Below are positions 14,615 through 48,615 of a stretch of 64,000 nucleotides of DNA, piece after piece (the stretch's first letter is position 1; each line of letters begins with the position of its first letter). A model generated the notes under the pieces. It saw only the letters and a program-made list of their open reading frames with translations. It searched no databases and had not been told where the DNA came from. The translations under genes were made by a program, and so were the position numbers. This DNA is from an uncultured delta proteobacterium. GTDB lineage: Bacteria > Desulfobacterota > Desulfomonilia > UBA1062. Where the stretch lies: assembly GCA_963785235.1 (NCBI GenBank), contig CAWAUM010000013.1, forward strand, positions 64,001-128,000, read 5' to 3'.

Positions 14615-15530
14615 ATGCATATGAAGACCACCATCCTGAGCCTGCCTGAAGAGGAATTCGTACACCCCGGCAACAGGGCCTGTGCAGGCTGCGGCCTGGG
14701 CATCGCATACAGGATCGCGCTGAAGGCACTTGGCAATAACACCATCCTCGTTGTGCCTCCGAGCTGCCTTACGGTTCTTCAGGGGCTCTATCCGGTGGCA
14801 GCCACTAAACTCCCCTGCCTGAATGTCACCTTTGCCTCGACTGCCGCGGCATCCACAGGGATGGTTGCCGCACTCAAGGCGCTCAAGAAGGACATCAAGG
14901 TCGTGGCATGGGCCGGAGACGGCGGCACGGCCGACATCGGGCTCCAGGCACTCTCAGGAGCAGCCGAGCGCGGAGACAACTTCCTGTTCATCTGCTACGA
15001 CAACGAGGGCTATATGAACACCGGTGTTCAGCGCTCGGGAACCACGCCCCAGTGGGCCATCACATCAAACACCCCCATCAAGGGAAAGATACAGCAGAAA
15101 AAGGATGTCCCTTCCATTATGGCGGCGCATCATCTCTCCTATGTAGCCACCTGCTCCGCATCCTACCCCCTGGACCTCTATGACAAGGTCAAAAAGGCCG
15201 TGACGTTCCCCGGTCTTAAATACATCCATATCCAGATCCCCTGCCCTCCCGGGCTGGGGTTTCGAGGCCCGGTATGCCGTGAAGCTGGGCAAGCTTGCGG
15301 TTGAGACGGGGCTGTTCGAACTTTACGAGGTGGAGCAGGATATACAACGGCTTACCGGTGCATCCAGGAAGATCGCAGACAAACGTGCCCTTGTGCCTGT
15401 AGCAGAATTTTTCAAGGCACAGAGCCGGTTCAGGCTGATGGACTCATCCCGGATCGAAACTATCCAGGAGCAGATCAACAGGAAATGGGCCGGCGCCTTC
15501 GAGATCGCAGGCGATACGGACGAACCCTAG
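14615..15530 (+). CDS. porB: 2-oxoacid:ferredoxin oxidoreductase beta subunit, frameshift at ~15252
   Basis: ACAGCG and GDGG..DIG..YDNEGYMNTG TPP motif. An extra G at PCPPG|WGF shifts the frame, which continues into ORF 15279..15530. Confidence 0.9.
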
Positions 15531-16507
15531 CGCAGCGCAAGCTCCAGGTGCTCCCTGTCTAGATTGCCGCCCGACATGATGAGCGCCACCTTCTTGCCCT
15601 TGAGCTTTTCCTTTATCTTTATCGCAGCAATGAGTGAGGCCGCACCGGCGCCCTCGGCGAGGTTGTGCGTGGTGGTGAGAGCCAGGCGGATTCCCTCGAG
15701 AATCTCATCTTCGCTCAAGAGGACAACCTCTTTGATATGGTCCTTCATTATGACATAGGGGAGCTGGAATACACTCCTGGCCGCCAGACCGTCCGCTATG
15801 GTCTCCGCTTCATCCAGTACAACCCACTCGCCTTTTTGGAGAGAGTTATAGAAGGCAGCGGCCTTGGCTGCCTGTACACCTATAATCTCTACTGCCGGAT
15901 TGATGGCCTGTGCAACCCGGAGCAAAGAGGCGCATCCCCCGCCTCCTCCGATGGGGCAGATGATCACGTCCACGTCCGGCAGGTCTTCGAAGATCTCAAG
16001 GCCCATGGTGCCGATTCCATTGAGCATCGCAGGTTCATTTCCCTGTTCAACATAATAGTAGCCGGCAGCCGCAACCAGCTCATCACAATAGAACTGGGCA
16101 TCATAGAAATCATGGCCATGCACGATAAGTTCCGCCCCAAAGCTCTCAATAATACGATTGATCTCGGGGTTGTTGTTCTCCGGGACCACAACGGTGCATG
16201 GCGTGTGAAACCACTGGCCGGCCCATGCCATGGCAAGACCGTGGTTGCCTCTTGTGGAGACGAGCACGCCATTTGCCACATCCTCCTTGGGGATTGTCTG
16301 GAAGAAGTTCAAGGCCCCGCGGATCTTGAAGGAGCCTGTGGGCAGGTGGTTTTCATGCTTCACAAAGGCATCGCACCCGATGATCCTGCTGAGCTCCGAG
16401 TAATAAATGAGGTTCGTCCGGTGAATATAGGTTTTGATGGCTGTCTTTGCCTTCAGTATATCCTTGATTGTTACATGAGAGCTCAGTCGTTCGTACTTTT
16501 TCAGCAT
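15527..16507 (-). CDS. PLP-dependent threonine/serine dehydratase family protein (no ACT domain)
   Basis: TGSFKIRGA, STRGNHG, PIGGGGG and SGGN. Confidence 0.88.
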   Translation of the reverse strand: MLKKYERLSSHVTIKDILKAKTAIKTYIHRTNLIYYSELSRIIGCDAFVKHENHLPTGSFKIRGALNFFQTIPKEDVANGVLVSTRGNHGLAMAWAGQWFHTPCTVVVPENNNPEINRIIESFGAELIVHGHDFYDAQFYCDELVAAAGYYYVEQGNEPAMLNGIGTMGLEIFEDLPDVDVIICPIGGGGGCASLLRVAQAINPAVEIIGVQAAKAAAFYNSLQKGEWVVLDEAETIADGLAARSVFQLPYVIMKDHIKEVVLLSEDEILEGIRLALTTTHNLAEGAGAASLIAAIKIKEKLKGKKVALIMSGGNLDREHLELALR

Positions 16508-39264: not shown

Positions 39265-39467
39265 CAGTAGTATGATCTTATCTTGCTCATTTTCTTTACT
39301 GCTCTCTTCCGGGCTGCAATGGCCTTGCGTTTCTTCTTTACGCTGGGCTTTTCGTAGAATTCTCGTTTGCGAACCTCAGAGAGAACACCCGCCTTTTCCA
39401 CCTGCTTTTTGAAGCGCTTAAGTGCGCCCTCAAAAGGCTCGGTCTCTCTCACTTTAATTCCGGGCAT
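39264..39467 (-). CDS. rpsU: 30S ribosomal protein S21
   Basis: [34 protein letters not shown]; true start ATG 39467. Confidence 0.95.
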
Positions 39468-39558
39468 GCGTTGGTCAAACACCCCCTCTCTGTATAGCTG
39501 CTCTGTACAAGAAGGAGATTGTATATAGAAACCCCCAGGTACTGTCAAGCCATTAAGT

Positions 39559-39963
39559 TCAATTGGAACTTCTCTTCTTAGTTTTCATATATCCGGCCAG
39601 CCCGATTAATCCGGTACCCAGCAATATCATAGTGGCAGGCTCGGGTACGGGTGCAGGGGTATCATGATCATTCCTCAGGTTAAACAGGACTCTGTTAGAA
39701 TTCCCCCGGTTCGCAACAATAGTATTCCAAGGGTCCATGGCAGCGAAATTTCCCTGCGCACCTTCCCATAAGGGGGCGTCCCAATTCGTCCCGGACAAAG
39801 CCGGGATAAGGTTTGTATTAATGAATTGCTGAGGCCGAATGATATTGTACTCTACCGTGTAATTGACATAATTACGAAGATTGATCGGTGCCGCTTCAGC
39901 ATGAGTCAGGAAACTCGGAATTATCATAAGTGAAAGCAACAAAGTTATTCTCTTCATCTCCAT
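39559..39963 (-). CDS. Small PEP-CTERM sorting-domain protein
   Basis: Signal peptide plus [20 protein letters not shown] and a basic tail; AGGAGG RBS. Confidence 0.9.
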
Positions 39964-40078
39964 GTACCTCCTTTTTTTGAAAAACGAGGGAGGGATTTAG
40001 GGCTCCCTCCCTCAATAGAAATGAGGGGTTTAGCTTCTACCTTTTCTCTAGTAGTACTTTGTCTTTGAAGGGGTGTAA

Positions 40079-40094
40079 TTCAATAGGCATGCCA
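40079..40094 (-). promoter_or_regulatory. Putative sigma54 promoter of the PEP-CTERM gene
   Basis: TGGCATGCCTATTGAA, GG-N10-GA. Confidence 0.55.
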
Positions 40095-40179
40095 TAGCCA
40101 TCAATGGAAAAAACATCTATGATATCATTCTAGTACATATCCAAAGATTTCCATACCCGTAAAATAATTGGACGGATTG

Positions 40180-40216
40180 TCTTATGAGAAAGGATAAGTC
40201 CTTTTTAACAGGAATA
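40180..40216. promoter_or_regulatory. Tandem palindromic enhancer-like sites (UAS A)
   Basis: TCTT-N7-AGGA-N4-TCCT-N7-AGGAATA, with the same layout as 47711-47747. Confidence 0.65.
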
Positions 40217-40229
40217 CCGCTCACAGAAC

Positions 40230-40472
40230 TCATTGATGACTGGAAAGGGAGTGCTTCTTGAGCAAGGCGTATAACCTGGATCGTGAGAGGCCGGAGATCC
40301 TGCATGCCAGATCAACATTACCATCAGTTTGTCTCATAAGTTCAGATAGATAGACGTTCTCCATCTTCACAATGTATCGGTCTCGCACACCTTTGAGAGG
40401 ATGGAGGTCTGAATGCAGACTACGTTTCAAATCGGCAAAAATCCGGCTTGATAGAGATCTTGGTTTGTACAT
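40230..40472 (-). CDS. Stand-alone Fis-type HTH protein paralogous to the C-terminus of the adjacent sigma54 activator
   Basis: Shares YL.ELMRQT and an identical ACRISGLSRSRLYALLKKH with ORF 40520..41962. Confidence 0.7.
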   Translation of the reverse strand: MYKPRSLSSRIFADLKRSLHSDLHPLKGVRDRYIVKMENVYLSELMRQTDGNVDLACRISGLSRSRLYALLKKHSLSSHQ

Positions 40473-40483
40473 ATCAATGGAGT

Positions 40484-40499
40484 AACAAGTTATGTGCCA
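40484..40499 (-). promoter_or_regulatory. Putative sigma54 promoter with predicted +1 at ~40473
   Basis: TGGCACATAACTTGTT, GG-N10-GT; the predicted start site falls next to the ATG at 40472. Confidence 0.55.
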
Positions 40500-40519
40500 G
40501 CAATACTTCCTGATATTAT

Positions 40520-41962
40520 TCAGGTGATATTGTGTTTCTTCAACAAGGCATAGAGGCGCGAGCGTGACAATCCCGAGATCCTGCAGGCTGTCTCAATGTG
40601 TGTCTTAGTCTGCCTCATCAATTCCTGGAGATAGTGCTTCTCTATTTCTGCGATAGAATCTTCCCGCACTTCCTTGAGACTGGGAAGCGATGTGCTGGTG
40701 AAATCCCGGGTCGGTTTCTTCTTTTTGCCTGCAACGGCATTTTGTTTCACCTGCACATGAATATGATGGGGAAGGTGCTTGGGAACGAGGATTGAACTAT
40801 CTTGTGCAACAGTAATCGCGCTTTCGATTGCATGAATCAACTCTCTGACATTACCCGGCCATGAGTACTGCACGAGGGTATCACAGAAAGCGGCACTGAG
40901 GCGTTTCGGCTTCATGCCGGATTTTCTGGTTAGTCTGTTCAGGTACAGATCCGTCAGACCGAGAATATCTTCAGGACGCTCCCTGAGCGGGGGAATATGG
41001 ATGGTTATGGATTGCAGCCTGAAGAGAAGATCCTTCCTGAATCCGTCTGTTTCCACCATCTTGTCGAGATTCCGGTTGGTTGCGGATATAACCCTGAAAT
41101 CACTGTCCACCTCGCTCGATTTCCCCACAGGGCGGAAGCGGCCTTCCTGGAGGATTCGGAGGAAATTTTTCTGGGTGGCCAGGGGGAGTTCACCAACTTC
41201 GTCCAGAAAGAGGGTACCCTGGTGGGCCTGGGTAACAAGGCCGTGCTGTGATCTGTCCGCACCCGTATATGATCCCTTCTCATGGCCGAACAGAATGCTC
41301 TCCACCAGGTTCGGGGGCAATGCGGCACAGTCCACAATGACAAACTCATTTCCTGAACGCGCCGAGTTATTGTGGATCGAGCGTGCAAAGAGCTCCTTAC
41401 CTGTGCCTGTCTCACCCGTCAGCAGCACATTGGCCTCACTCTTAAAGGTCTTGCTCAATAATGCCAGACATTCTTTCATCCTGGGGCTCTTGGCGAATAT
41501 CCCCTCTTTCTCAAAATCAACAGCTTTGACTGGCTGTTTATTGCTCCTATGATAGATAACAACATCTTTGAGCAGTGTAGAGAGTTCGTTTTTTGAAAAG
41601 GGTTTTTCCAGGTAATCCCATGCCCCTTTGGAAAGGGCTGCCTCAACCGAATCCGGATCACCGTAACCGGTTATGACAATCACTTCCGGCCTGCCGATAT
41701 TCTGGGAGATTTGCGGGAGTTTCTCAATACCGTTTCCATCAGGCATATGCACATCGAGAAAAACGACATCATATGCGTCTGCGTGTGCCGCCCCGAGTCC
41801 ATCCTTCAAGGTCAAGGCTGTTGTGGTGGTATAGCCCAAGGTCTTGGCCACGTTGGCTATGGAATTACATACAAGGCTGTCATCATCAATGATGAGAATC
41901 TTTTCCTGATTATCTATAGGCACTTGAGAATAATATAGGCTTTCCATTGAGATGTAAAGCAC
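40520..41962 (-). CDS. NtrC-family sigma54-dependent response regulator (REC-AAA+-HTH)
   Basis: REC (IIDDD, FLDVHMPD), GETGTGKE, ESILFGHEKGSYTGA, LFLDEVG and WPGNVREL. Confidence 0.95.
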   Translation of the reverse strand: MLYISMESLYYSQVPIDNQEKILIIDDDSLVCNSIANVAKTLGYTTTTALTLKDGLGAAHADAYDVVFLDVHMPDGNGIEKLPQISQNIGRPEVIVITGYGDPDSVEAALSKGAWDYLEKPFSKNELSTLLKDVVIYHRSNKQPVKAVDFEKEGIFAKSPRMKECLALLSKTFKSEANVLLTGETGTGKELFARSIHNNSARSGNEFVIVDCAALPPNLVESILFGHEKGSYTGADRSQHGLVTQAHQGTLFLDEVGELPLATQKNFLRILQEGRFRPVGKSSEVDSDFRVISATNRNLDKMVETDGFRKDLLFRLQSITIHIPPLRERPEDILGLTDLYLNRLTRKSGMKPKRLSAAFCDTLVQYSWPGNVRELIHAIESAITVAQDSSILVPKHLPHHIHVQVKQNAVAGKKKKPTRDFTSTSLPSLKEVREDSIAEIEKHYLQELMRQTKTHIETACRISGLSRSRLYALLKKHNIT

Positions 41963-41964
41963 TC

Positions 41965-44900
41965 TTAAGCCAGTAAACGGCCTATGGCTTCTTGCATCTG
42001 GGAACGGGAAAAGGGTTTGAGAATGAACTCATTAATGCCGGTATTCTTTTCCTGCAGTTCCTGCATGATTTCTTCTGAGCCCGAGCAAAGTATTACCGGG
42101 ATGTCCTGACGGATCTGACGGATATGCCCTGCCAGTTCATGACCTTTCATCCGGGGCATGACCTGGTCCGTTATAACCAGGGAGAACATCTTCGGTTCGT
42201 CTCTGAAGATTTTGAGCGCCTCCTGGGGATCGGATGTTGATGTCACTTGATATCCGAGATGGATCAGCAACTGGTGGATGCTGCGTAAGTCACCGACATT
42301 GTCGTCTGCAAGGAGGATATGTTTTTCTCCATGACCTTGAGATTGCCTGAGCTGCCTATGGGCTTGATCCTGGGGATCAGTGTATTGAGGAAAATACACT
42401 TCGAATTTTGCCCCTTTCCCGGTATCGCTTGAGAGAAGTATCGATCCATTCGCATTCTTGACCAGTTCGTGCACTACAGCAAGCCCCAACCCGGTGCCCT
42501 TGCTTGACTTCTTGGTAGAAAAGAATGGATCGAATATCCTGTCCCTGATATCCGGGCTTATTCCGGTTCCGGTATCCCGGACTGTCAGTTTCAGATATTT
42601 TCCCGGCTTGAGGTCGGATACGAGGGCCGCGGTATAGGAAGCTATTTCAGTTTCCTTGAGGGAAACACCAAGAAATCCTTTGCCTGATTTCATGGCCTGG
42701 ACAGCATTATTGCACAGGTTGAGAATGAGTTGATGAATCTGGGTCTGGTCAACCCTGACAAGGCCTTCCCTTGCATTTATCCATTGTTTGAAGGTAATTC
42801 GTGAAGGGATCGACCTTTTCATGAGGTTAAGCGCATCCTGAACAACAGGACCTATGGTAATAGGCTTGCAGAAAGATCCCTTTCTGGAGCCGAACAGCTT
42901 TATCTGCCTGATGAGATTCTTCCCGAGATGGGCTGCATCAATGATCTGGTCCAAGTATTCCCGCTCCTGCGTTCCGTGAGGGAGGATATCCGAGATGAGT
43001 TCCGAATTGATGAGGATGGGCTGGAGCACGTTATTGAAGTCGTGGGCAATACCCCCTGCAAGCTTGCCCAGGGCCTCTATTTTCTGGGCTTGTATGAGCT
43101 GGTTTTCGAGCCTCTTCTTTTCTTCTTCGGCCAGCTTGCGTTCGGTTATATCGCGGGCCGCTGCAAATACGCCGAGCGCTCTGCCTTCCTGATCGTGATA
43201 GAGGGATGCGTTGTACAGGACAGGGGTAATGAGACCATCGTGATGAAGCATATCAAGGGGATAGTCCTGTATCTTTCCTTCACTGAATACCTGCTCATAT
43301 CCGGCACGGGCCTTGTCCGGTTCGGTGAAATAATCGGAAAAATCAGTGTTGATAAGCTCTCTTCGGCTGCGGCCTGTCACCTTTTCCGTAGCCATGTTCA
43401 CGTCCGTGATCCTGCCGTTGACATCAATGGTCACCAGGGGATCAAGGCTCGCCTCGATGAGGCTTCTGTTATAGGCGCCTGCCAGCCTTAAGGCATTCTC
43501 CGCCTTTTTGCGCTGGGTTATTTCAGCTACGAGTTGCCTGTTTCTGGCCTGCACTTCAGTTGTGCGTTCCTTTACGAGATCTTCCAGTTTATCCTTATGC
43601 CTGCATAATTCATCCTCCGCGAGTTTTCGCTGGGTAATGTCCATGAATATGACGGCAAACTGTTCCGGAGCAGGACGATAGGCAAATGCCTCATAGTGCC
43701 GATTGAGGACCGGAGAATAATTTTCAAAGTGCACAGGTTCTCCGGTGAGCGCGACAGAACCATAGGCCTTTACCCATTTTGGGTCATCATCAGGCAGAAC
43801 CTGCAGCATGGTCTTGCCCACCACATCTTCCCTTTTGAGGCCGGTGAGCCGTTCAAAGGCCGGGTTCGCATCGATGAATCGATAATCACAGGGTATGCCT
43901 TTCTCATCGCATATGATCTCGTGCAGGGCAAACCCCTCGGACATGGAACTGAAGAGGTGGTGGAAGCGCTGCTCGCTCTTCCTGAGGGCCTCCTCGGCTA
44001 TTATCCGCTTGCTTATATCTCCGTAGGTTATTGCAACGCCATATTCTTCCAGGGGTATGGGTGCAGCAGTGACATTGATCCAGGTAATGTCACCATTGCC
44101 TTTCACAATGCCCATTTCAACATTCTCCACAAGGCAGTTGTTTTTGAGTGCAATGACGCTGGCATATTCATCTTCGGGCATGTCACTGCCGTCTGGCCTG
44201 ATAACCCGCCATTCCTGACCTGCGATGCCCCTGTTTTCAAGTTCCTCCCGAGAGATCCCAAGCAACCGTTCAGCTTCCTTGCTGCTTTCGATAATGTTGC
44301 CAACTTTGTCTGTTATGGTGATCCCCAAAGGAAATGAGTTGAAGAGCACTTTGTATTTCGCGAGACTGATCTTATATTCCTTATCGATCTGCCTCTGTTT
44401 GGTGACATCATATGCAACCTCCCCCGCCCCCACCACAGTGCCATTGGCATCCCGCAGGGGTGTCTGGATCACGCTGTAAACGCGACGGTAGCGACCGGGA
44501 TCGCCGAATTCAATGGTCTTGATTACACTCTCACCACCCAGTATTCGGCCCCACGCCTCTACAGCGAGCTTCCGCTGCCCGGGCATATGGGCAAAAAGTT
44601 CGATCATGCTCATACCGATATGGATATCCTTGCCGGTGAGCCGCTTTAACTCTTCCTGATATGTTGTATTAAAGTAAGTGTAGCGGAAGTTTGTATCCAC
44701 GGCTGCGATAATCACTTCCGTTCCTCTCGTTATGGCCTCCAGCAGTTCGTGCGTCTGCTTCAGCTCCTTCTCAGAGTGTTTCCGTTCGGTGATGTCGCGG
44801 ATTATGATCTGGATGGCAGGCTCGCCCTGGAAGTCGATTGTGCCGCCCACGGTCTCCACATCGGTGATGCGACCATCCAGGCTCACCATTTTTGTTTCCC

Positions 44901-46149
44901 GTAATGGCGCTTTATGTTCAAGTTGAATCTGCATTATACGTGCTTCTATTGCAGCCCGGTCGTCTTGATGAATCAGGTCCAGAACTGTTCTGGTCTGCAA
45001 TTGTTTGAGTGTTCTGGCGCCATAGAGTTTCAGTGCAACCGAATTGGCATAGAGAAAATACCCGTCACGATGGACGATGATGCCGTCAGGGGATGATTCA
45101 ACCAGAGACCGGTAACGCACTTCGCTTTCACTCAGGGCAACCTGTGTCTGGATGCGCTGCATGGCTATAGCCACTTGATCGGCAACGGTCTTCATTATGG
45201 AGATCTCATCGCTTGAGAAGTGAGGACGGGTTCTGGTGCCGAAAGAGAGCGTGCCTATTACCCTGCCCTGGGCCAGGAGGGGATGGCAGCAATAGGCCTG
45301 GATCCCATAAGATTTTACCAGATTGGTCCTTGGATCAGCGGTACTGGCGATATCCTCGGCAATGATTCGGCTGCCCTCCTGGGCTGCACAGCCGCAGACA
45401 GCCACTCCGTAATCCAGCCATTCGATCTTCCGGGCTTCCTCCTCGGGGATGCCTGCAAATGCATTCAGGCGGAGACGCCCTGACTCATCATCCGCCAGGA
45501 AATTGAAGAATGCCTGACAGTCCAGGTGTTCCATCACCCGGGGGCACAGTTCATTGACAATAGCCTGCGGATCATCAGATTCCAGGAGCCGTTCTGCCGT
45601 CTCGGAAAGCATCTTGAACCGGGCTTCACTCTTTCTCAGTGATTCCTCGGCCAAGGTCCGTTCGGTAATATCATGCCAGACCGTGACCGAGCCTGTGATG
45701 CTGTCTCCCATACACATGGGACCCGAAGAGGCCTCCACTACCCTGTCGGTATTGTCTGACCTCTTTACCAGGAAGCATGCACCAGTCACCTTTTCTCCCC
45801 GCAGCGCCCGGGGTGTAGGCTGTTCCTCCAAAATGAACGACCGACCGTCCAGCCATCGGCAAGAAACACGCTTTATAATGTCTTTGATATTGAGGCCAAC
45901 AGGATCGAATCCATAATTTTCCAAGAACGACTGATTCGCCCGGAGAACATTCATGTCCGCGCCGTAGATGAGCACAGCATCGTTTTGAGCCGCAAAGACT
46001 GCCTCCAGCTCGGCAGCACGTTTTAAAAGCTCCTGCTCGAAATGGGCACACTCAGCATGCATCCTTTCGAGTTCAGCAATTCTCTGGCGTGCTTGTGCAA
46101 GCTCCTTCAGGAGTTGTACCTTTGATTTCTTTCCTTCAGACATGGCCAT
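41965..46149 (-). CDS. Cytoplasmic hybrid histidine kinase (PAS-GAF-multi-PAS-HisKA-HATPase-REC)
   Basis: Repeated DITER-type PAS ends, Cys-rich GAF (VCGC, YCCHP), LAGGIAHDFNN, GTGLGL and a C-terminal receiver (TDQVMP). Confidence 0.95.
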   Translation of the reverse strand: MAMSEGKKSKVQLLKELAQARQRIAELERMHAECAHFEQELLKRAAELEAVFAAQNDAVLIYGADMNVLRANQSFLENYGFDPVGLNIKDIIKRVSCRWLDGRSFILEEQPTPRALRGEKVTGACFLVKRSDNTDRVVEASSGPMCMGDSITGSVTVWHDITERTLAEESLRKSEARFKMLSETAERLLESDDPQAIVNELCPRVMEHLDCQAFFNFLADDESGRLRLNAFAGIPEEEARKIEWLDYGVAVCGCAAQEGSRIIAEDIASTADPRTNLVKSYGIQAYCCHPLLAQGRVIGTLSFGTRTRPHFSSDEISIMKTVADQVAIAMQRIQTQVALSESEVRYRSLVESSPDGIIVHRDGYFLYANSVALKLYGARTLKQLQTRTVLDLIHQDDRAAIEARIMQIQLEHKAPLRETKMVSLDGRITDVETVGGTIDFQGEPAIQIIIRDITERKHSEKELKQTHELLEAITRGTEVIIAAVDTNFRYTYFNTTYQEELKRLTGKDIHIGMSMIELFAHMPGQRKLAVEAWGRILGGESVIKTIEFGDPGRYRRVYSVIQTPLRDANGTVVGAGEVAYDVTKQRQIDKEYKISLAKYKVLFNSFPLGITITDKVGNIIESSKEAERLLGISREELENRGIAGQEWRVIRPDGSDMPEDEYASVIALKNNCLVENVEMGIVKGNGDITWINVTAAPIPLEEYGVAITYGDISKRIIAEEALRKSEQRFHHLFSSMSEGFALHEIICDEKGIPCDYRFIDANPAFERLTGLKREDVVGKTMLQVLPDDDPKWVKAYGSVALTGEPVHFENYSPVLNRHYEAFAYRPAPEQFAVIFMDITQRKLAEDELCRHKDKLEDLVKERTTEVQARNRQLVAEITQRKKAENALRLAGAYNRSLIEASLDPLVTIDVNGRITDVNMATEKVTGRSRRELINTDFSDYFTEPDKARAGYEQVFSEGKIQDYPLDMLHHDGLITPVLYNASLYHDQEGRALGVFAAARDITERKLAEEEKKRLENQLIQAQKIEALGKLAGGIAHDFNNVLQPILINSELISDILPHGTQEREYLDQIIDAAHLGKNLIRQIKLFGSRKGSFCKPITIGPVVQDALNLMKRSIPSRITFKQWINAREGLVRVDQTQIHQLILNLCNNAVQAMKSGKGFLGVSLKETEIASYTAALVSDLKPGKYLKLTVRDTGTGISPDIRDRIFDPFFSTKKSSKGTGLGLAVVHELVKNANGSILLSSDTGKGAKFEVYFPQYTDPQDQAHRQLRQSQGHGEKHILLADDNVGDLRSIHQLLIHLGYQVTSTSDPQEALKIFRDEPKMFSLVITDQVMPRMKGHELAGHIRQIRQDIPVILCSGSEEIMQELQEKNTGINEFILKPFSRSQMQEAIGRLLA

Positions 46150-46433
46150 GCAAACCACCACCCATTGTAGTTATTCTTCATGATGTTCAATGGGGATTCC
46201 CCATTACTCAGTCCCTTAAAAGCAATTAACACTGCATCAAGCAAAACAGGACAATCAACATGAAACCTGGTAAAGAGATATTATAGTACGGTTTCAAGGG
46301 AATGGAATATGTGCAAAAGGATTTTATCTTGATTGTTACCCCATGACCTGGATTGCATGGTTATTGAATCCCCAGCCCATACCCTCATCACCCTGGAAAC
46401 AGTCGAATCATATGATAATGATCACCACAACTT

Positions 46434-47219
46434 TCAGTTCTGAATCTCTCCCTTATGCATATAACCAATCCGACAGGTTCTTTGCGCCTGGGAGGAATCA
46501 AGGGTGTTCGACTTAAAAAAACTACCTGCCTGATCAACAAAAACCTGTTTCAGCTTTTCCATAGATCTTGTCTGGATCTGCCTCACGCGTTCCCTGCTCA
46601 CACCGAGTTGCATTCCAATCTCTTTGAGCTTTACAGGAGGATCTGAAAAATATCGCTGTTTGAGGACAGAGACCTCTCTTTGTGACAGGAAGGAAAAACA
46701 GTGCTGGAGCAGGGTTGAAATGTTATATGATGCCTCCCTGCCATTATAGAGTATCTCAGGGTCCGTACCATCGGTTACAAAATCTATCCACCGATCCTTG
46801 TCATTATCATCCTTACCAAGATGTTCATCCAGTGAGAACAGATTCTTGGCATGACTCAGGCTTCCGGTATTCACCTTTCCGCTCTTGTTCAAGAAGGCCT
46901 TGATGAAGGCCTCTATCCACCAGACCGCATAGTAGATAAATGGTATTCCGCGTTCAGGATCGAAACGGTTCAGTGCTTTTATCAGCCCAAGATTTCCTTC
47001 CTGAATAATCTCGAGACAATTATGACCGCAATAAAAATATTTCCTGCTCACCTTCACCACAAACTTCAAGTTAGATTGGAGTATCTGCTGCCCGGCAGTT
47101 TCATCTCCCTTCTGATACCGCTTTGCCAGTTCAAATTCCTTCTCGTGGGTAAGGGTCGAGTAGTGCTGTATCTGCCGGTAGTACTGCAGAAAATCTCCAT
47201 AATCAAACAATTTTTCCAT
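46434..47219 (-). CDS. RpoH-like alternative sigma70 factor with domain 3 largely missing
   Basis: Region 1.2, SNLKFVVKV, IQEGNLGL, FDPERG..YYAVWWI, and region 4 LKEIG..LGVSRERVRQI. Confidence 0.88.
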   Translation of the reverse strand: MEKLFDYGDFLQYYRQIQHYSTLTHEKEFELAKRYQKGDETAGQQILQSNLKFVVKVSRKYFYCGHNCLEIIQEGNLGLIKALNRFDPERGIPFIYYAVWWIEAFIKAFLNKSGKVNTGSLSHAKNLFSLDEHLGKDDNDKDRWIDFVTDGTDPEILYNGREASYNISTLLQHCFSFLSQREVSVLKQRYFSDPPVKLKEIGMQLGVSRERVRQIQTRSMEKLKQVFVDQAGSFFKSNTLDSSQAQRTCRIGYMHKGEIQN

Positions 47220-47252
47220 GAAGATCCCCTTCTCTTTTGTGTTGTAACATCA

Positions 47253-47525
47253 TCAAATTATAAACAATTCAGCATATTTTTTTCTGATGTCCAGGGTATT
47301 TCTGAATCTGATCTGTCCCGACTCAAACATGTGGGCCACCCTTTCTATTGCAGAAGAGGTATGACCATGATTATTCGGCCTTTGACCATCAACGCCCTTC
47401 TCAGCCCTTGATTGATTGCCCTGTTCTGAATCAATGACTGTCATGAGATCGTACAGGGTAGTGGTTATGGTTGAGGTCGGTAAAGAGTTATGTGATCCTG
47501 TTTCATTGAGCGTATTCATTGGCAA
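47253..47525 (-). CDS. Small hypothetical protein
   Basis: GGAGG RBS; TTTLYDLM...VAHMFESGQIRF; sits between a sigma54 promoter and the sigma gene. Confidence 0.7.
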   Translation of the reverse strand: MPMNTLNETGSHNSLPTSTITTTLYDLMTVIDSEQGNQSRAEKGVDGQRPNNHGHTSSAIERVAHMFESGQIRFRNTLDIRKKYAELFII

Positions 47526-47606
47526 CCTCCCGTTGAATAAGATGAAAACCTGACATCGTTTTCAATGACTCCACATGAACATTCTTATCTCACAGACATA
47601 GACGTA

Positions 47607-47622
47607 TACAATTGGTGTGCCA
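47607..47622 (-). promoter_or_regulatory. Putative sigma54 promoter for the small protein-sigma factor operon
   Basis: TGGCACACCAATTGTA, GG-N10-GT. Confidence 0.6.
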
Positions 47623-47710
47623 CTGGTTGGTATTTTTTATTTATTATTTGGTGTCAATATGTTACAAGCACTCATATCCTGATTGATTTTCTTTGTACTG
47701 TCACTATCTG

Positions 47711-47747
47711 TCTTGCTCAACAGGACTAATCCATCTTCACAGGAATA
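47711..47747. promoter_or_regulatory. Tandem palindromic enhancer-like sites (UAS B)
   Basis: TCTT-N7-AGGA-N4-TCCA-N7-AGGAATA; a possible third site TCCA-N7-CGGA at 47753-47767. Confidence 0.65.
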
Positions 47748-47820
47748 GGCATTCCAGATGACCCGGATCAATCAGGATAAGATGTCGAATAATAATTCCC
47801 CAGACAACCCTTATGCATTA

Positions 47821-48615
47821 TCACACAAAAGGCTCGCTCTTATTCCATCCAAGGCGACTGAAGTATTTCAGGGTTCCCACATGGCCGGTCATATCTCCTG
47901 AATCGCTCGATGAGAGGAATGTAACCAGATCTGCCACCTCTCTGGGATCCTTCAGAATGCCCTGCTCCTTATACTCGATCATCTGGTTGAACAAGCCCTC
48001 GCCAAGCACATCAGGTCCCATGGCACGGATATCGTTTCCTATGGATGTATCCATCAAGCCCGGATCGACTGCATTGACCTGAATATTCAAAAGTTTCAGC
48101 TCCTCGGACAGTGACCTGGTGAGCTGGATGAGCCCGGCTTTGGACACTGAATAGGCACAGAATCGGGGGAATGGCATCTGGCCGAGGCCAGATACGATGT
48201 TGATGATCTTGCCGCCGCCATGGCTGACCATGTAGGGAAGCACTGTGCGGCAGAAAAGGTAGCACCCGGTAAGATTGATATCCAGAGTCCGTTTCCAGAC
48301 AGTGGGTAGCGCATCCTCAAGGAACCGTGCAGGACCCATAATCCCTGCGTTGTTCACGAGGATATCGATCCTGCCGAAACGACTTATGGTCTCGGCCACA
48401 ACAGACTCCACGTCCTGCTTGTCCGTTGTATCACCTGTATGGAGGAGATAATCACCCCCGAGCTTATCTAGTTCTGCAGAGACATCATCAAGCTCTTCCT
48501 TGAGAAGGCTGAACAAGGCCACATTCGCCCCGGAGAGTTCGAATGCGAGTGATATAGCCTTGCCGAGGCCCCTGCCGGCACCGGTGATGATGGCTACTCT
48601 TCCTGTGAGGTTCAT
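47821..48615 (-). CDS. Short-chain dehydrogenase/reductase
   Basis: TGAGRGLG, NNAG and YSVSK. Confidence 0.93.
   Translation of the reverse strand: MNLTGRVAIITGAGRGLGKAISLAFELSGANVALFSLLKEELDDVSAELDKLGGDYLLHTGDTTDKQDVESVVAETISRFGRIDILVNNAGIMGPARFLEDALPTVWKRTLDINLTGCYLFCRTVLPYMVSHGGGKIINIVSGLGQMPFPRFCAYSVSKAGLIQLTRSLSEELKLLNIQVNAVDPGLMDTSIGNDIRAMGPDVLGEGLFNQMIEYKEQGILKDPREVADLVTFLSSSDSGDMTGHVGTLKYFSRLGWNKSEPFV

Follow-up and report, generated by a model that had tools for sequence, protein, structure and literature searches.

A cluster of 6 genes lies head to tail on the minus strand (positions 39559–47525) of the window analyzed here (W), a 64,000-nucleotide stretch from the 3.9-Mb genome of an uncultured delta proteobacterium (G000, with contigs C1, C3, C5, C12, C13, and others). 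In the direction of transcription, the genes encode an 88-residue orphan protein (orf88), an RpoH/RpoS-like sigma factor without domain 3, a hybrid histidine kinase, an NtrC-type enhancer-binding protein (hereafter, the activator), a stand-alone version of the activator's DNA-binding domain (mini-HTH, for helix-turn-helix), and a small PEP-CTERM protein (Table 1). All 6 co-oriented genes had been listed by an earlier sequence-only reading of this DNA, and the Pfam and NCBIfam profile searches on which our domain calls are based bore out the domains that it had named, including those of the PAS/GAF hybrid kinase and the NtrC-type activator; the length of the first product changes from 90 residues to the 88 given by the conserved start codon.

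The same reading was to be given up if the genes did not co-occur elsewhere. They do: among the 52 genomes of one uncultured family that we compared (the relatives' records are labeled Desulfomonilia), 24 encode a sigma factor at least 50% identical to that of the window. In 20 of them, the contig that bears the sigma gene also encodes, no more than about 6 kb away, an activator with the same helix-turn-helix; the other 4 genomes are fragmented or gave no match. The closest relative (G037) has all 6 genes. The order sigma-kinase-activator is found in G014 and in G035, where an rpsU-like gene follows directly; G034 and G036 have orf88-sigma-activator, and genus g14 has kinase-activator-mini-HTH-enhancer-orf88-X-sigma.

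Table 1. Features of the gene cluster and its surroundings by position in the window, followed by loci of the z110 family. aa, amino acids; nt, nucleotides; UAS, upstream activating sequence.
Feature	Position	Strand	Description
rpsU-like, yqeY-like, and mutS2-like genes		 	Downstream flank; names from a reading of the translations
Mini PEP-CTERM protein	39559..39963	-	134 aa, signal peptide; likely start ATG 39957, by spacing to the ribosome-binding site
PEP-CTERM gene leader element	39979..40028	-	ACCCCTCA box, 11-bp G/C hairpin (GAGGGAGGGAG...CTCCCTCCCTC type; GAGGGAGGG...CCCTCCCTC), T-run
P2, sigma-54-type promoter	40079..40094	-	TGGCATGCCTATTGAA
IHF-like box, UAS to P2	40118..40134	-	From the 13-region alignment
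Enhancer (UAS) of P2	40180..40213	-	Starts 17 nt past the mini-HTH stop codon
Mini-HTH	40230..40472	-	80 aa, activator's DNA-binding domain only; Fis/NtrC DNA-binding domain fold
P3, sigma-54-type promoter	40484..40499	-	TGGCACATAACTTGTT; ends 11 nt before the mini-HTH ATG
NtrC-type enhancer-binding protein (activator)	40520..41962	-	480 aa; REC, Sigma54_activat (AAA+), HTH_8; GSYTGA loop
Hybrid histidine kinase	41965..46161	-	1398 aa; GAF, 5–6 PAS, HisKA, HATPase, C-terminal REC
Conserved TATAAT box, sigma-kinase spacer	46280..46285	-	Block CACTATAAT kept in W, G037, G035, and G014
Sigma factor	46434..47219	-	261 aa; RpoH/RpoS-like sigma-1.2/2 and sigma-4, no sigma-3 domain
orf88	47253..47519	-	Frame 47253–47525; conserved start ATG 47519, 88 aa
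P1, sigma-54-type promoter	47607..47622	-	TGGCACACCAATTGTA; about 75 nt upstream of the start codon of orf88
IHF-like box, UAS to P1	47650..47664	-	TAACATATTGACACC; conserved block TAAnATATTGATATCATT in the 13-region alignment
Enhancer (UAS) of P1	47711..47744	-	Two TCC-N9-GGA/AGA palindromes, 19 bp center to center; genome C13 111744–111711
SDR dehydrogenase gene		 	Upstream flank
z110, G000 C5	L048:10659-11039		
z110, G000 C1	L009:12538-12972		
z110	L044:2876-3196		
z110	L045:3976-4308		
z110	L042:4761-5126		

A stand-alone copy of the activator's DNA-binding domain

The sequence-only reading had recognized mini-HTH as a stand-alone helix-turn-helix copy, and the protein scores 24.9 bits against HTH_8 (PF02954; cut-off 22). 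Its database relatives form an 80-residue stand-alone family (P0002–P0010, P0012, and P0013), with lengths of 78–90 residues, identities of 47–57%, and query coverage of 86–99%. Short frames of this kind (81–120 residues) occur in 15 of the 52 family genomes, from 3 genera (3 genomes of g1, 1 of g8, and 11 of the 12 of g14), and in all but one of these the frame lies directly downstream of the orthologous activator (14/15; the exception is G033, a genome 71% complete).

The protein matches the last ~95 residues of the activator with the linker deleted, at 59.6% identity over 57 aligned residues. The 19-residue helix-turn-helix stretch ACRISGLSRSRLYALLKKH is the same in both, with 11 synonymous and 0 non-synonymous codon differences, and the 35 codons ahead of it carry 19 non-synonymous differences. 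Between G000 and G037, 10 codons of mini-HTH differ synonymously and 6 non-synonymously, for a ratio of non-synonymous to synonymous substitution rates (dN/dS) of 0.16, much like the 0.15 of the sigma gene. A tree computed for the DNA-binding domains of 8 activators together with 6 mini-HTHs, from a short alignment (~65 columns) and with some long branches, separates the two groups by one branch (support 85/89; 88% of bootstrap trees). By these measures, mini-HTH is a gene under purifying selection and not a remnant, and the dN/dS, the codon pattern, and the tree together are those of one old partial duplication, since which the DNA-reading surface has been held equal to that of the parent. 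The G033 copy (L090:7752-7991), the only one without an adjoining activator, is diverged in its helix-turn-helix stretch (AVEISGLSRSQLYSLLKKH) and sits on the longest branch of the tree. Constraint may have relaxed here once the partner was lost, but the genome is only 71% complete.

Mini-HTH is preceded by a promoter of its own, P3. The pattern TTGGCAY-N5-TTGTT lies 11–15 nucleotides before the ATG in all 13 stand-alone mini-HTH loci (named records of metagenome-assembled genomes), its GG and TTG conserved and its 5 spacer bases variable; in G033, TTGCT ends 11 nucleotides before the ATG. None of the 13 loci has a Shine-Dalgarno sequence, though the neighboring genes have strong ones, and given this and the closeness of P3 to the ATG, the mRNA, predicted from the usual sigma-54 geometry to start 0–5 nucleotides before the AUG, is probably leaderless or nearly so. 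A double UAS follows the mini-HTH gene, 286–559 bp downstream of P3, in 9 of 10 loci; this downstream enhancer may be common to P3 and the promoter after it, and the same activator would then presumably fire P3. In G037, an insertion of ~225 nucleotides, absent from the window, separates the activator stop codon from P3 (L040:8790-9035) and includes a long inverted repeat, GTTCAGAACCCCCTGTC...GACAGGGGTTCTGAAC.

Promoters, enhancers, and the genes they precede

The orf88-sigma genes and the PEP-CTERM gene each stand behind an enhancer and a sigma-54-type promoter (P1 and P2, respectively) of one and the same build: TCC-N9-GGA, 4 nucleotides, TCC-N9-RGA, an IHF-like block, and YGGCAC-N5-TTGWAT, with the enhancer 85–88 nucleotides upstream of its promoter in both cases. 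Site A, site B, the IHF-like box, and the promoter align column by column across 13 promoter regions from 10 genomes. The block TAAnATATTGATATCATT fits the IHF consensus, WATCAANNNNTTR, and G000 encodes rpoN and 8 HU/IHF-family genes. Such a promoter, with both dyads and the IHF-like block ahead of it, is also found upstream of orf88/sigma homologues in G037, G034, G036, G035 (2 loci), G049, G042, and G040. On either side, the P1 enhancer is flanked by a 16-nucleotide inverted repeat (47672–47687 and 47767–47782; 94% complementary, ATCAATCAGGATA type), which holds ATCCTG half-site-like words and may provide extra weak activator sites.

The generic pattern TGGCAC-N5-TTGCW with 2 mismatches occurs in the window at chance level (33 found versus 34.9 expected), and P1, P2, and P3 stand above chance because of their conservation and context: the GG of the −24 and the TTG of the −12 element are conserved at all 3 promoters and their orthologues, the following C being replaced by T or A. 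On these grounds, the 3 sigma-54-type promoters and 2 enhancer blocks proposed in the sequence-only reading are upheld. The genome-wide scan for the UAS near −24/−12 elements, which that reading had suggested as a check, yields exactly 3 sites, serving the orf88-sigma genes, the PEP-CTERM gene, and an operon on C5. A regular expression for the 16-nucleotide promoter has 3 matches in the 3.9-Mb genome, namely, P1, P2, and C5:577084; a loose double-UAS pattern gives 14 strand-hits, versus 1–10 in ten shuffles, and only those at P1, P2, and C5 have a −24/−12 site 85–88 nucleotides downstream. The C5 site, found independently of the window, comes after genes for a PAS kinase paralogue and one single-receiver protein and precedes an open reading frame of 113–126 residues for a zinc-ribbon-like protein (z110) and a hemerythrin-domain gene. 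The sigma54-to-sigma70 cascade proposed earlier thus holds at the level of gene arrangement, where one enhancer type serves both the orf88-sigma operon and the PEP-CTERM gene. The neighborhood of the C5 operon looks mobile: the hemerythrin gene is immediately followed by an IS110-family transposase gene, and the paralogous kinase gene has one of the phage-integrase family upstream of it (L048:8662-9687, 15506-16123). No Rfam match was obtained for positions 39300–48000 at E values up to 1.

Sigma factor, kinase, and output genes

The absence of domain 3 from the RpoH-like sigma factor, noted from the sequence, is seen in every comparison made. Residues 13–113 and 126–228 align with residues 66–167 and 223–323 of RpoS structures, respectively, with ~43 residues of region 3.0/3.1 absent; the RpoH profile (TIGR02392) matches in two stretches, at positions 3–109 and 168–268, with positions 110–167 unmatched, and scores 160 bits, below the RpoH cut-off of 323. 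An AlphaFold2 model based on 22 family sequences (mean predicted local distance difference test score, pLDDT, 74) has helices at residues 7–114 and 154–234 and a low-confidence stretch, 116–151, between them. G000 also encodes two full-length RpoH-like sigma factors (285 and 287 residues), which have ~45 extra residues exactly at the gap, and a K-x-L-F remnant, a putative trace of the RpoH-box motif, is visible in the alignment with them. The trimmed sigma factor is most similar to RpoH/RpoS in its sigma-1.2/2 and sigma-4 domains but differs from RpoH (group 3) in lacking sigma-3 and in its sub-cut-off score; its model has the two-domain layout of extracytoplasmic function (ECF, group 4) sigma factors, but, unlike these, it keeps region 1.2 (PF00140, 5.1e-7).

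Trimmed sigma factors of this type occur in 50 of the 52 family genomes, and G000 itself has 3, at 100%, 68%, and 46% identity. Elsewhere the type is rare: in a set of 1.84 billion cluster representatives, the best 150 include only ~11 full-length proteins (235–277 residues) and 6 shorter fragments that are colinear in one stretch; the others have the size of RpoH, and their alignments are split into two or more stretches. The locus of the 68% paralogue (C1:621210-631600; L009) has a canonical sigma-54 site (TGGCAGGCCCTTTGCT) ~130 nucleotides upstream of the sigma gene, and PilZ, DUF3108-like, z110, mini PEP-CTERM, and Sel1-repeat protein genes and a full-length RpoH-like sigma gene nearby.

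Neither a Pfam or NCBIfam family nor a usable ESM Atlas match was found for orf88, and its relatives in the database (97 clusters) are all named hypothetical. Homologues are present in 21 of the 52 family genomes, in 20 of which a trimmed sigma gene closely follows a homologue on the same strand; the places without a sigma gene (2 of 22) are both at contig ends. A predicted complex of the two proteins scored 0.00, which gives no verdict and is evidence neither way, and gene linkage makes orf88 a candidate anti-sigma factor or co-factor.

The kinase has no membrane helix (top 19-residue hydropathy, 1.08), indicating a cytoplasmic protein, and its gene is directly upstream of the activator gene in G037, G035, G014, G042, G040, and G017, an adjacency from which kinase control of the activator may be surmised. 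The activator has the domain set of the NtrC class (PF00072, 2.3e-24; PF00158, 8.9e-64; PF02954, 2.1e-4, at 21.4 bits just under the 22-bit cut-off), with a Walker A motif, GETGTGK, at residue 183. Its sigma-54 contact loop (residues ~226–231) reads GSYTGA, not GAFTGA, and is the only one of that sequence among the 20 such loops found in the genome (16 GAFTGA and 3 GSFTGA); orthologues have GSYTGA, GAYTGA, or GAFTGA. The GSYTGA loop accompanies −12 elements without the usual C, and co-variation of loop and promoter is possible. Since the spacer between the sigma and kinase genes holds no terminator-like site, P1 may also feed the kinase and activator genes. The TATAAT box conserved in this spacer may be a basal promoter for these 2 genes; a scan for sigma-70-type promoters gave matches at chance level (12 versus 10.5 expected).

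The PEP-CTERM domain of the last gene product scores above the cut-offs of both PF07589 (30.2 versus 20.7 bits) and TIGR02595 (24.2 versus 16), and with one exosortase-family gene (C3:173693) and 9 PEP-CTERM open reading frames in G000, the protein has the features of an exosortase substrate. Of the genomes compared, G000 and G037 alone have the PEP-CTERM gene directly after mini-HTH, a place taken in other genera by the orf88-sigma operon. A paralogue of the PEP-CTERM protein, 38% identical, is encoded on C1, ~2.5 kb upstream of the 68% sigma paralogue, and PEP-CTERM proteins are encoded near the system in G034 and G036 (120–122 residues, after the activator) and in G014 (225 residues). The PEP-CTERM gene may be regarded as one lineage-specific output.

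The leader element of the PEP-CTERM gene includes a hairpin, the 5′ arm of which can pair with the ACCCCnCAT box ahead of it. The hairpin occurs only twice in the 3.9-Mb genome (in the window and at C1:626462-626491), on each occasion immediately ahead of a mini PEP-CTERM gene; among relatives (L044:3295-3322; L045:3862-3886), it lies after z110 in G035 and between z110 and a PEP-CTERM gene in G014. Covariation is slight (1 compensated pair among 10), and the hairpin is a candidate attenuator or intercistronic terminator. A Qrr-like small RNA that would end at the hairpin after P2 was also considered; there is no room for a separate promoter of the PEP-CTERM gene. The z110 proteins (~110 residues; motif YHxFKCxxPGCNEIIPVES plus a second CxxC, zinc-ribbon-like) recur beside the system and beside mini PEP-CTERM genes in G000 (C5 and C1), G035, G014, G034, and G036; they match no Pfam family, and in the ESM Atlas only unnamed clusters.

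A candidate feedback circuit and its relation to known systems

Our preferred reading, to which we assign a probability of roughly 0.55, is that the cluster is a conserved sigma-54 two-component circuit in which the DNA-binding-domain-only paralogue of the activator provides negative feedback. A signal would act through the cytoplasmic PAS/GAF hybrid kinase on the activator, which would bind the double dyad and, with IHF, fire P1, P2, and the C5 promoter. P1 would drive orf88 and the trimmed sigma factor, and its likely readthrough into the kinase and activator genes would make a cascade with positive autoregulation, the TATAAT box perhaps giving basal expression of the latter 2 genes. P2 would drive the mini PEP-CTERM surface protein, and the C5 site the zinc-ribbon/hemerythrin operon. 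From P3 would come the leaderless mini-HTH mRNA, and the encoded protein would most likely either take up the enhancer sites of the activator or pair with the activator's DNA-binding domain in mixed dimers; by either route, it would limit or time activation. A pulse or a switch is what this wiring predicts rather than something observed. The self-competitor proposed in the sequence-only reading is, in light of a selected gene with a kept helix-turn-helix and a sigma-54 promoter of its own, a reasonable reading of mini-HTH, in which the competition itself would be the conjectural step.

Several observations weigh against this circuit. The evidence on mini-HTH is the same for a competitor as for a helper of the activator, and the gene is dispensable: of the 28 genomes that have the helix-turn-helix type of the activator, 13 have no mini-HTH. 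The double-site enhancer pattern is missing upstream of P3 in all 10 loci, and single UAS-like sites are present there in only 2 of 10, with one more single site inside the window's activator gene, so that activation of P3 by this activator would need looping from the downstream enhancer, or else another activator. The −12 elements of P1, P2, and P3 are all TTGT or TTGA, without the canonical C of TTGC, and their use by sigma-54 is consequently argued from conservation, the enhancer, and the IHF-like box. On the signaling side, G034 and G036 lack a kinase gene between those for the sigma factor and the activator. The window's kinase is of the hybrid type, with a receiver domain of its own, and the locus shows no Hpt protein, which makes the route of phosphotransfer to the activator uncertain; the kinase and activator genes may also have their own promoter, which makes autoregulation uncertain. 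Finally, the sequencing runs listed as matching the locus are of DNA only (share ≤0.41), with no RNA run among them.

We put forward more tentatively, and at somewhat less than even odds, the stronger proposal that mini-HTH is a dedicated "anti-enhancer," the product of a leaderless sigma-54 transcript fired by the very enhancer that it then blocks, making the circuit a self-limiting pulse generator and mini-HTH a living step of the path from NtrC to Fis; together with the trimmed sigma factor and its 88-residue partner, it would form an undescribed module.

Among the alternatives, the one that fares best concerns the role of the circuit and not its wiring, namely, that the programme responds to redox or oxygen stress, rather than being a surface or developmental one as first suggested, with the PEP-CTERM protein as a minor, lineage-specific output. 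We regard this as a serious contender, though short of an even chance. A desulfoferrodoxin gene adjoins the sigma gene in G014 and G040, a Lon-like AAA protein gene does so in G042, and the hemerythrin gene of C5 follows z110 under the same enhancer; together with the RpoH/RpoS-like nature of the sigma factor and the cytoplasmic multi-PAS/GAF sensor, these neighbors hint at a response to redox or oxygen stress in which the surface has a part, and the PEP-CTERM gene directly follows mini-HTH in just the 2 genomes named above. Against this alternative, mini PEP-CTERM genes recur with the system (the C1 paralogue, G034/G036, and G014), which makes surface change a repeated output, and the PAS/GAF domains come without an identified ligand or cofactor. 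The other outputs (zinc-ribbon-like protein, hemerythrin, desulfoferrodoxin, and Lon-like protease) speak for stress or redox functions no less than for the surface or developmental programme first suggested.

A less probable alternative, which we consider unlikely, leaves the circuit in place and reverses the sign of mini-HTH: as a Fis-like architectural helper, it would bend or pre-mark enhancer DNA and promote assembly or looping of the activator. Fis proteins bend DNA and have N-terminal beta-hairpin arms. The nearest solved relatives of mini-HTH are indeed Fis proteins: its profile matches Fis residues 53–97 in the PDB (E 8e-4), and its model (mean pLDDT 79.6, four helices) finds Fis as the top Foldseek match (E 0.04, probability 1.0, TM score 0.58) along with the DNA-binding domains of NtrC4 and NtrC1 (root-mean-square deviation 0.8–1.1), no Foldseek match reaching E 0.001. 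Moreover, mini-HTH is always found next to an enhancer, one that is equipped with an IHF-like box as well. However, a helix-turn-helix identical to that of the activator over 19 residues predicts binding to the same sites and not to neighboring ones, the model places a helix at residues 7–17 (pLDDT ~55, weak evidence) where Fis has its beta-hairpin arms, and the activator works without mini-HTH in the 13 genomes that lack it. That mini-HTH has no function and is just left over from a duplication of part of the activator gene, its 3′ end, as its match to the last ~95 residues with the linker deleted and its absence from those 13 genomes might suggest, is highly improbable in view of its dN/dS, the 0 non-synonymous versus 11 synonymous changes in the helix-turn-helix stretch, the intact 80-residue frames in 3 genera, the conserved promoter, and the single old origin.

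The enhancer motif defines a small regulon of this uncultured anaerobic lineage that could be traced in metatranscriptomes from wetlands and sediments. Two further testable oddities are the mRNA predicted to be leaderless and sigma-54-dependent and the RpoH-like sigma factor that lacks sigma-3 and has an orphan partner.

Among known systems, the PrsK/PrsR control of PEP-CTERM genes resembles the cluster in layout, with, as described in Haft 2006 (PMC1569441), an NtrC-type regulator and a PEP-CTERM gene as a single-gene unit behind a large intergenic region with an activator site and a sigma-54 motif. That the cluster is another such system is nevertheless refuted by the scores: against PrsR (TIGR02915; cut-off 502.6), the activator reaches 304–305 bits and ranks 27th among the genome's 30, and against PrsK (TIGR02916; cut-off 300), the kinase, which is devoid of membrane segments, reaches 60.7. 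The genome has its true PrsK/PrsR pair on C12, accompanied by two PEP-CTERM genes (PrsR at C12:234000-235331, 567 bits; PrsK at C12:231856-233883, 339 bits). The difference from PrsK/PrsR asserted in the sequence-only reading is thereby substantiated, and it extends to the activator and kinase families, the soluble kinase, the enhancer motif, and the further, non-PEP outputs.

NtrB/NtrC-type systems with tandem enhancer sites and IHF are exemplified by glnAp2, DctB/DctD, and ZraS/ZraR. The cluster shares with them a REC-AAA+-HTH_8 activator beside a histidine kinase, two dyad sites ~90–135 bp upstream, an IHF-like box, a −24/−12 promoter, and a probably autoregulated activator operon. It differs in its soluble multi-PAS/GAF hybrid kinase, GSYTGA loop, and −12 element of TTGW and in the inclusion of a DNA-binding-domain-only paralogue and a sigma-factor gene. 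Cascades from sigma-54 to an alternative sigma factor are likewise known (Borrelia Rrp2-RpoN-RpoS; FlrA/FlrC or FleQ to FliA in flagellar systems; E. coli rpoH P6), and the arrangement, in which a sigma-54 promoter and an enhancer-binding protein would drive a sigma-70-family gene, is not new in kind; here, however, the target lacks sigma-3 and travels with an 88-residue orphan, and in G000 it lies in the same operon-like string as the activator.

Morett and Bork reportedly proposed in 1998 that Fis derives from the DNA-binding domain of NtrC. Like Fis, mini-HTH is a small stand-alone HTH_8 protein (80 versus 98 residues), with Fis and NtrC DNA-binding domains as its best PDB matches. Unlike Fis, it adjoins its parent activator and shares its helix-turn-helix stretch, is lineage-restricted rather than a global nucleoid protein, is predicted to be sigma-54-dependent and leaderless, and has no predicted beta-hairpin arm. 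Mini-HTH would, if our reading is true, be a tractable intermediate for the proposed origin of Fis.

In titles and abstracts of literature outside subscription journals, we found no description of a DNA-binding-domain-only paralogue of an enhancer-binding protein, of a sigma-54-dependent leaderless gene, or of sigma-54 in Desulfomonilia; as far as these searches show, the paralogue, the leaderless sigma-54 promoter, and the sigma-3-less sigma factor with its 88-residue partner are new. Known anti-activators of enhancer-binding proteins (PspA-PspF, NifL-NifA, HrpV-HrpS, and FleN-FleQ) are unrelated to their targets and act on the AAA+ (ATPase) or sensory domains. Mini-HTH resembles them as a dedicated neighboring gene that would restrain one activator, but it copies the DNA-binding domain of its target and would act at the enhancer or on the dimer of that domain. 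If true, restraint by an enhancer-level copy would represent a different and very simple control principle, with a decoy close to the dominant-negative isoforms of eukaryotes.

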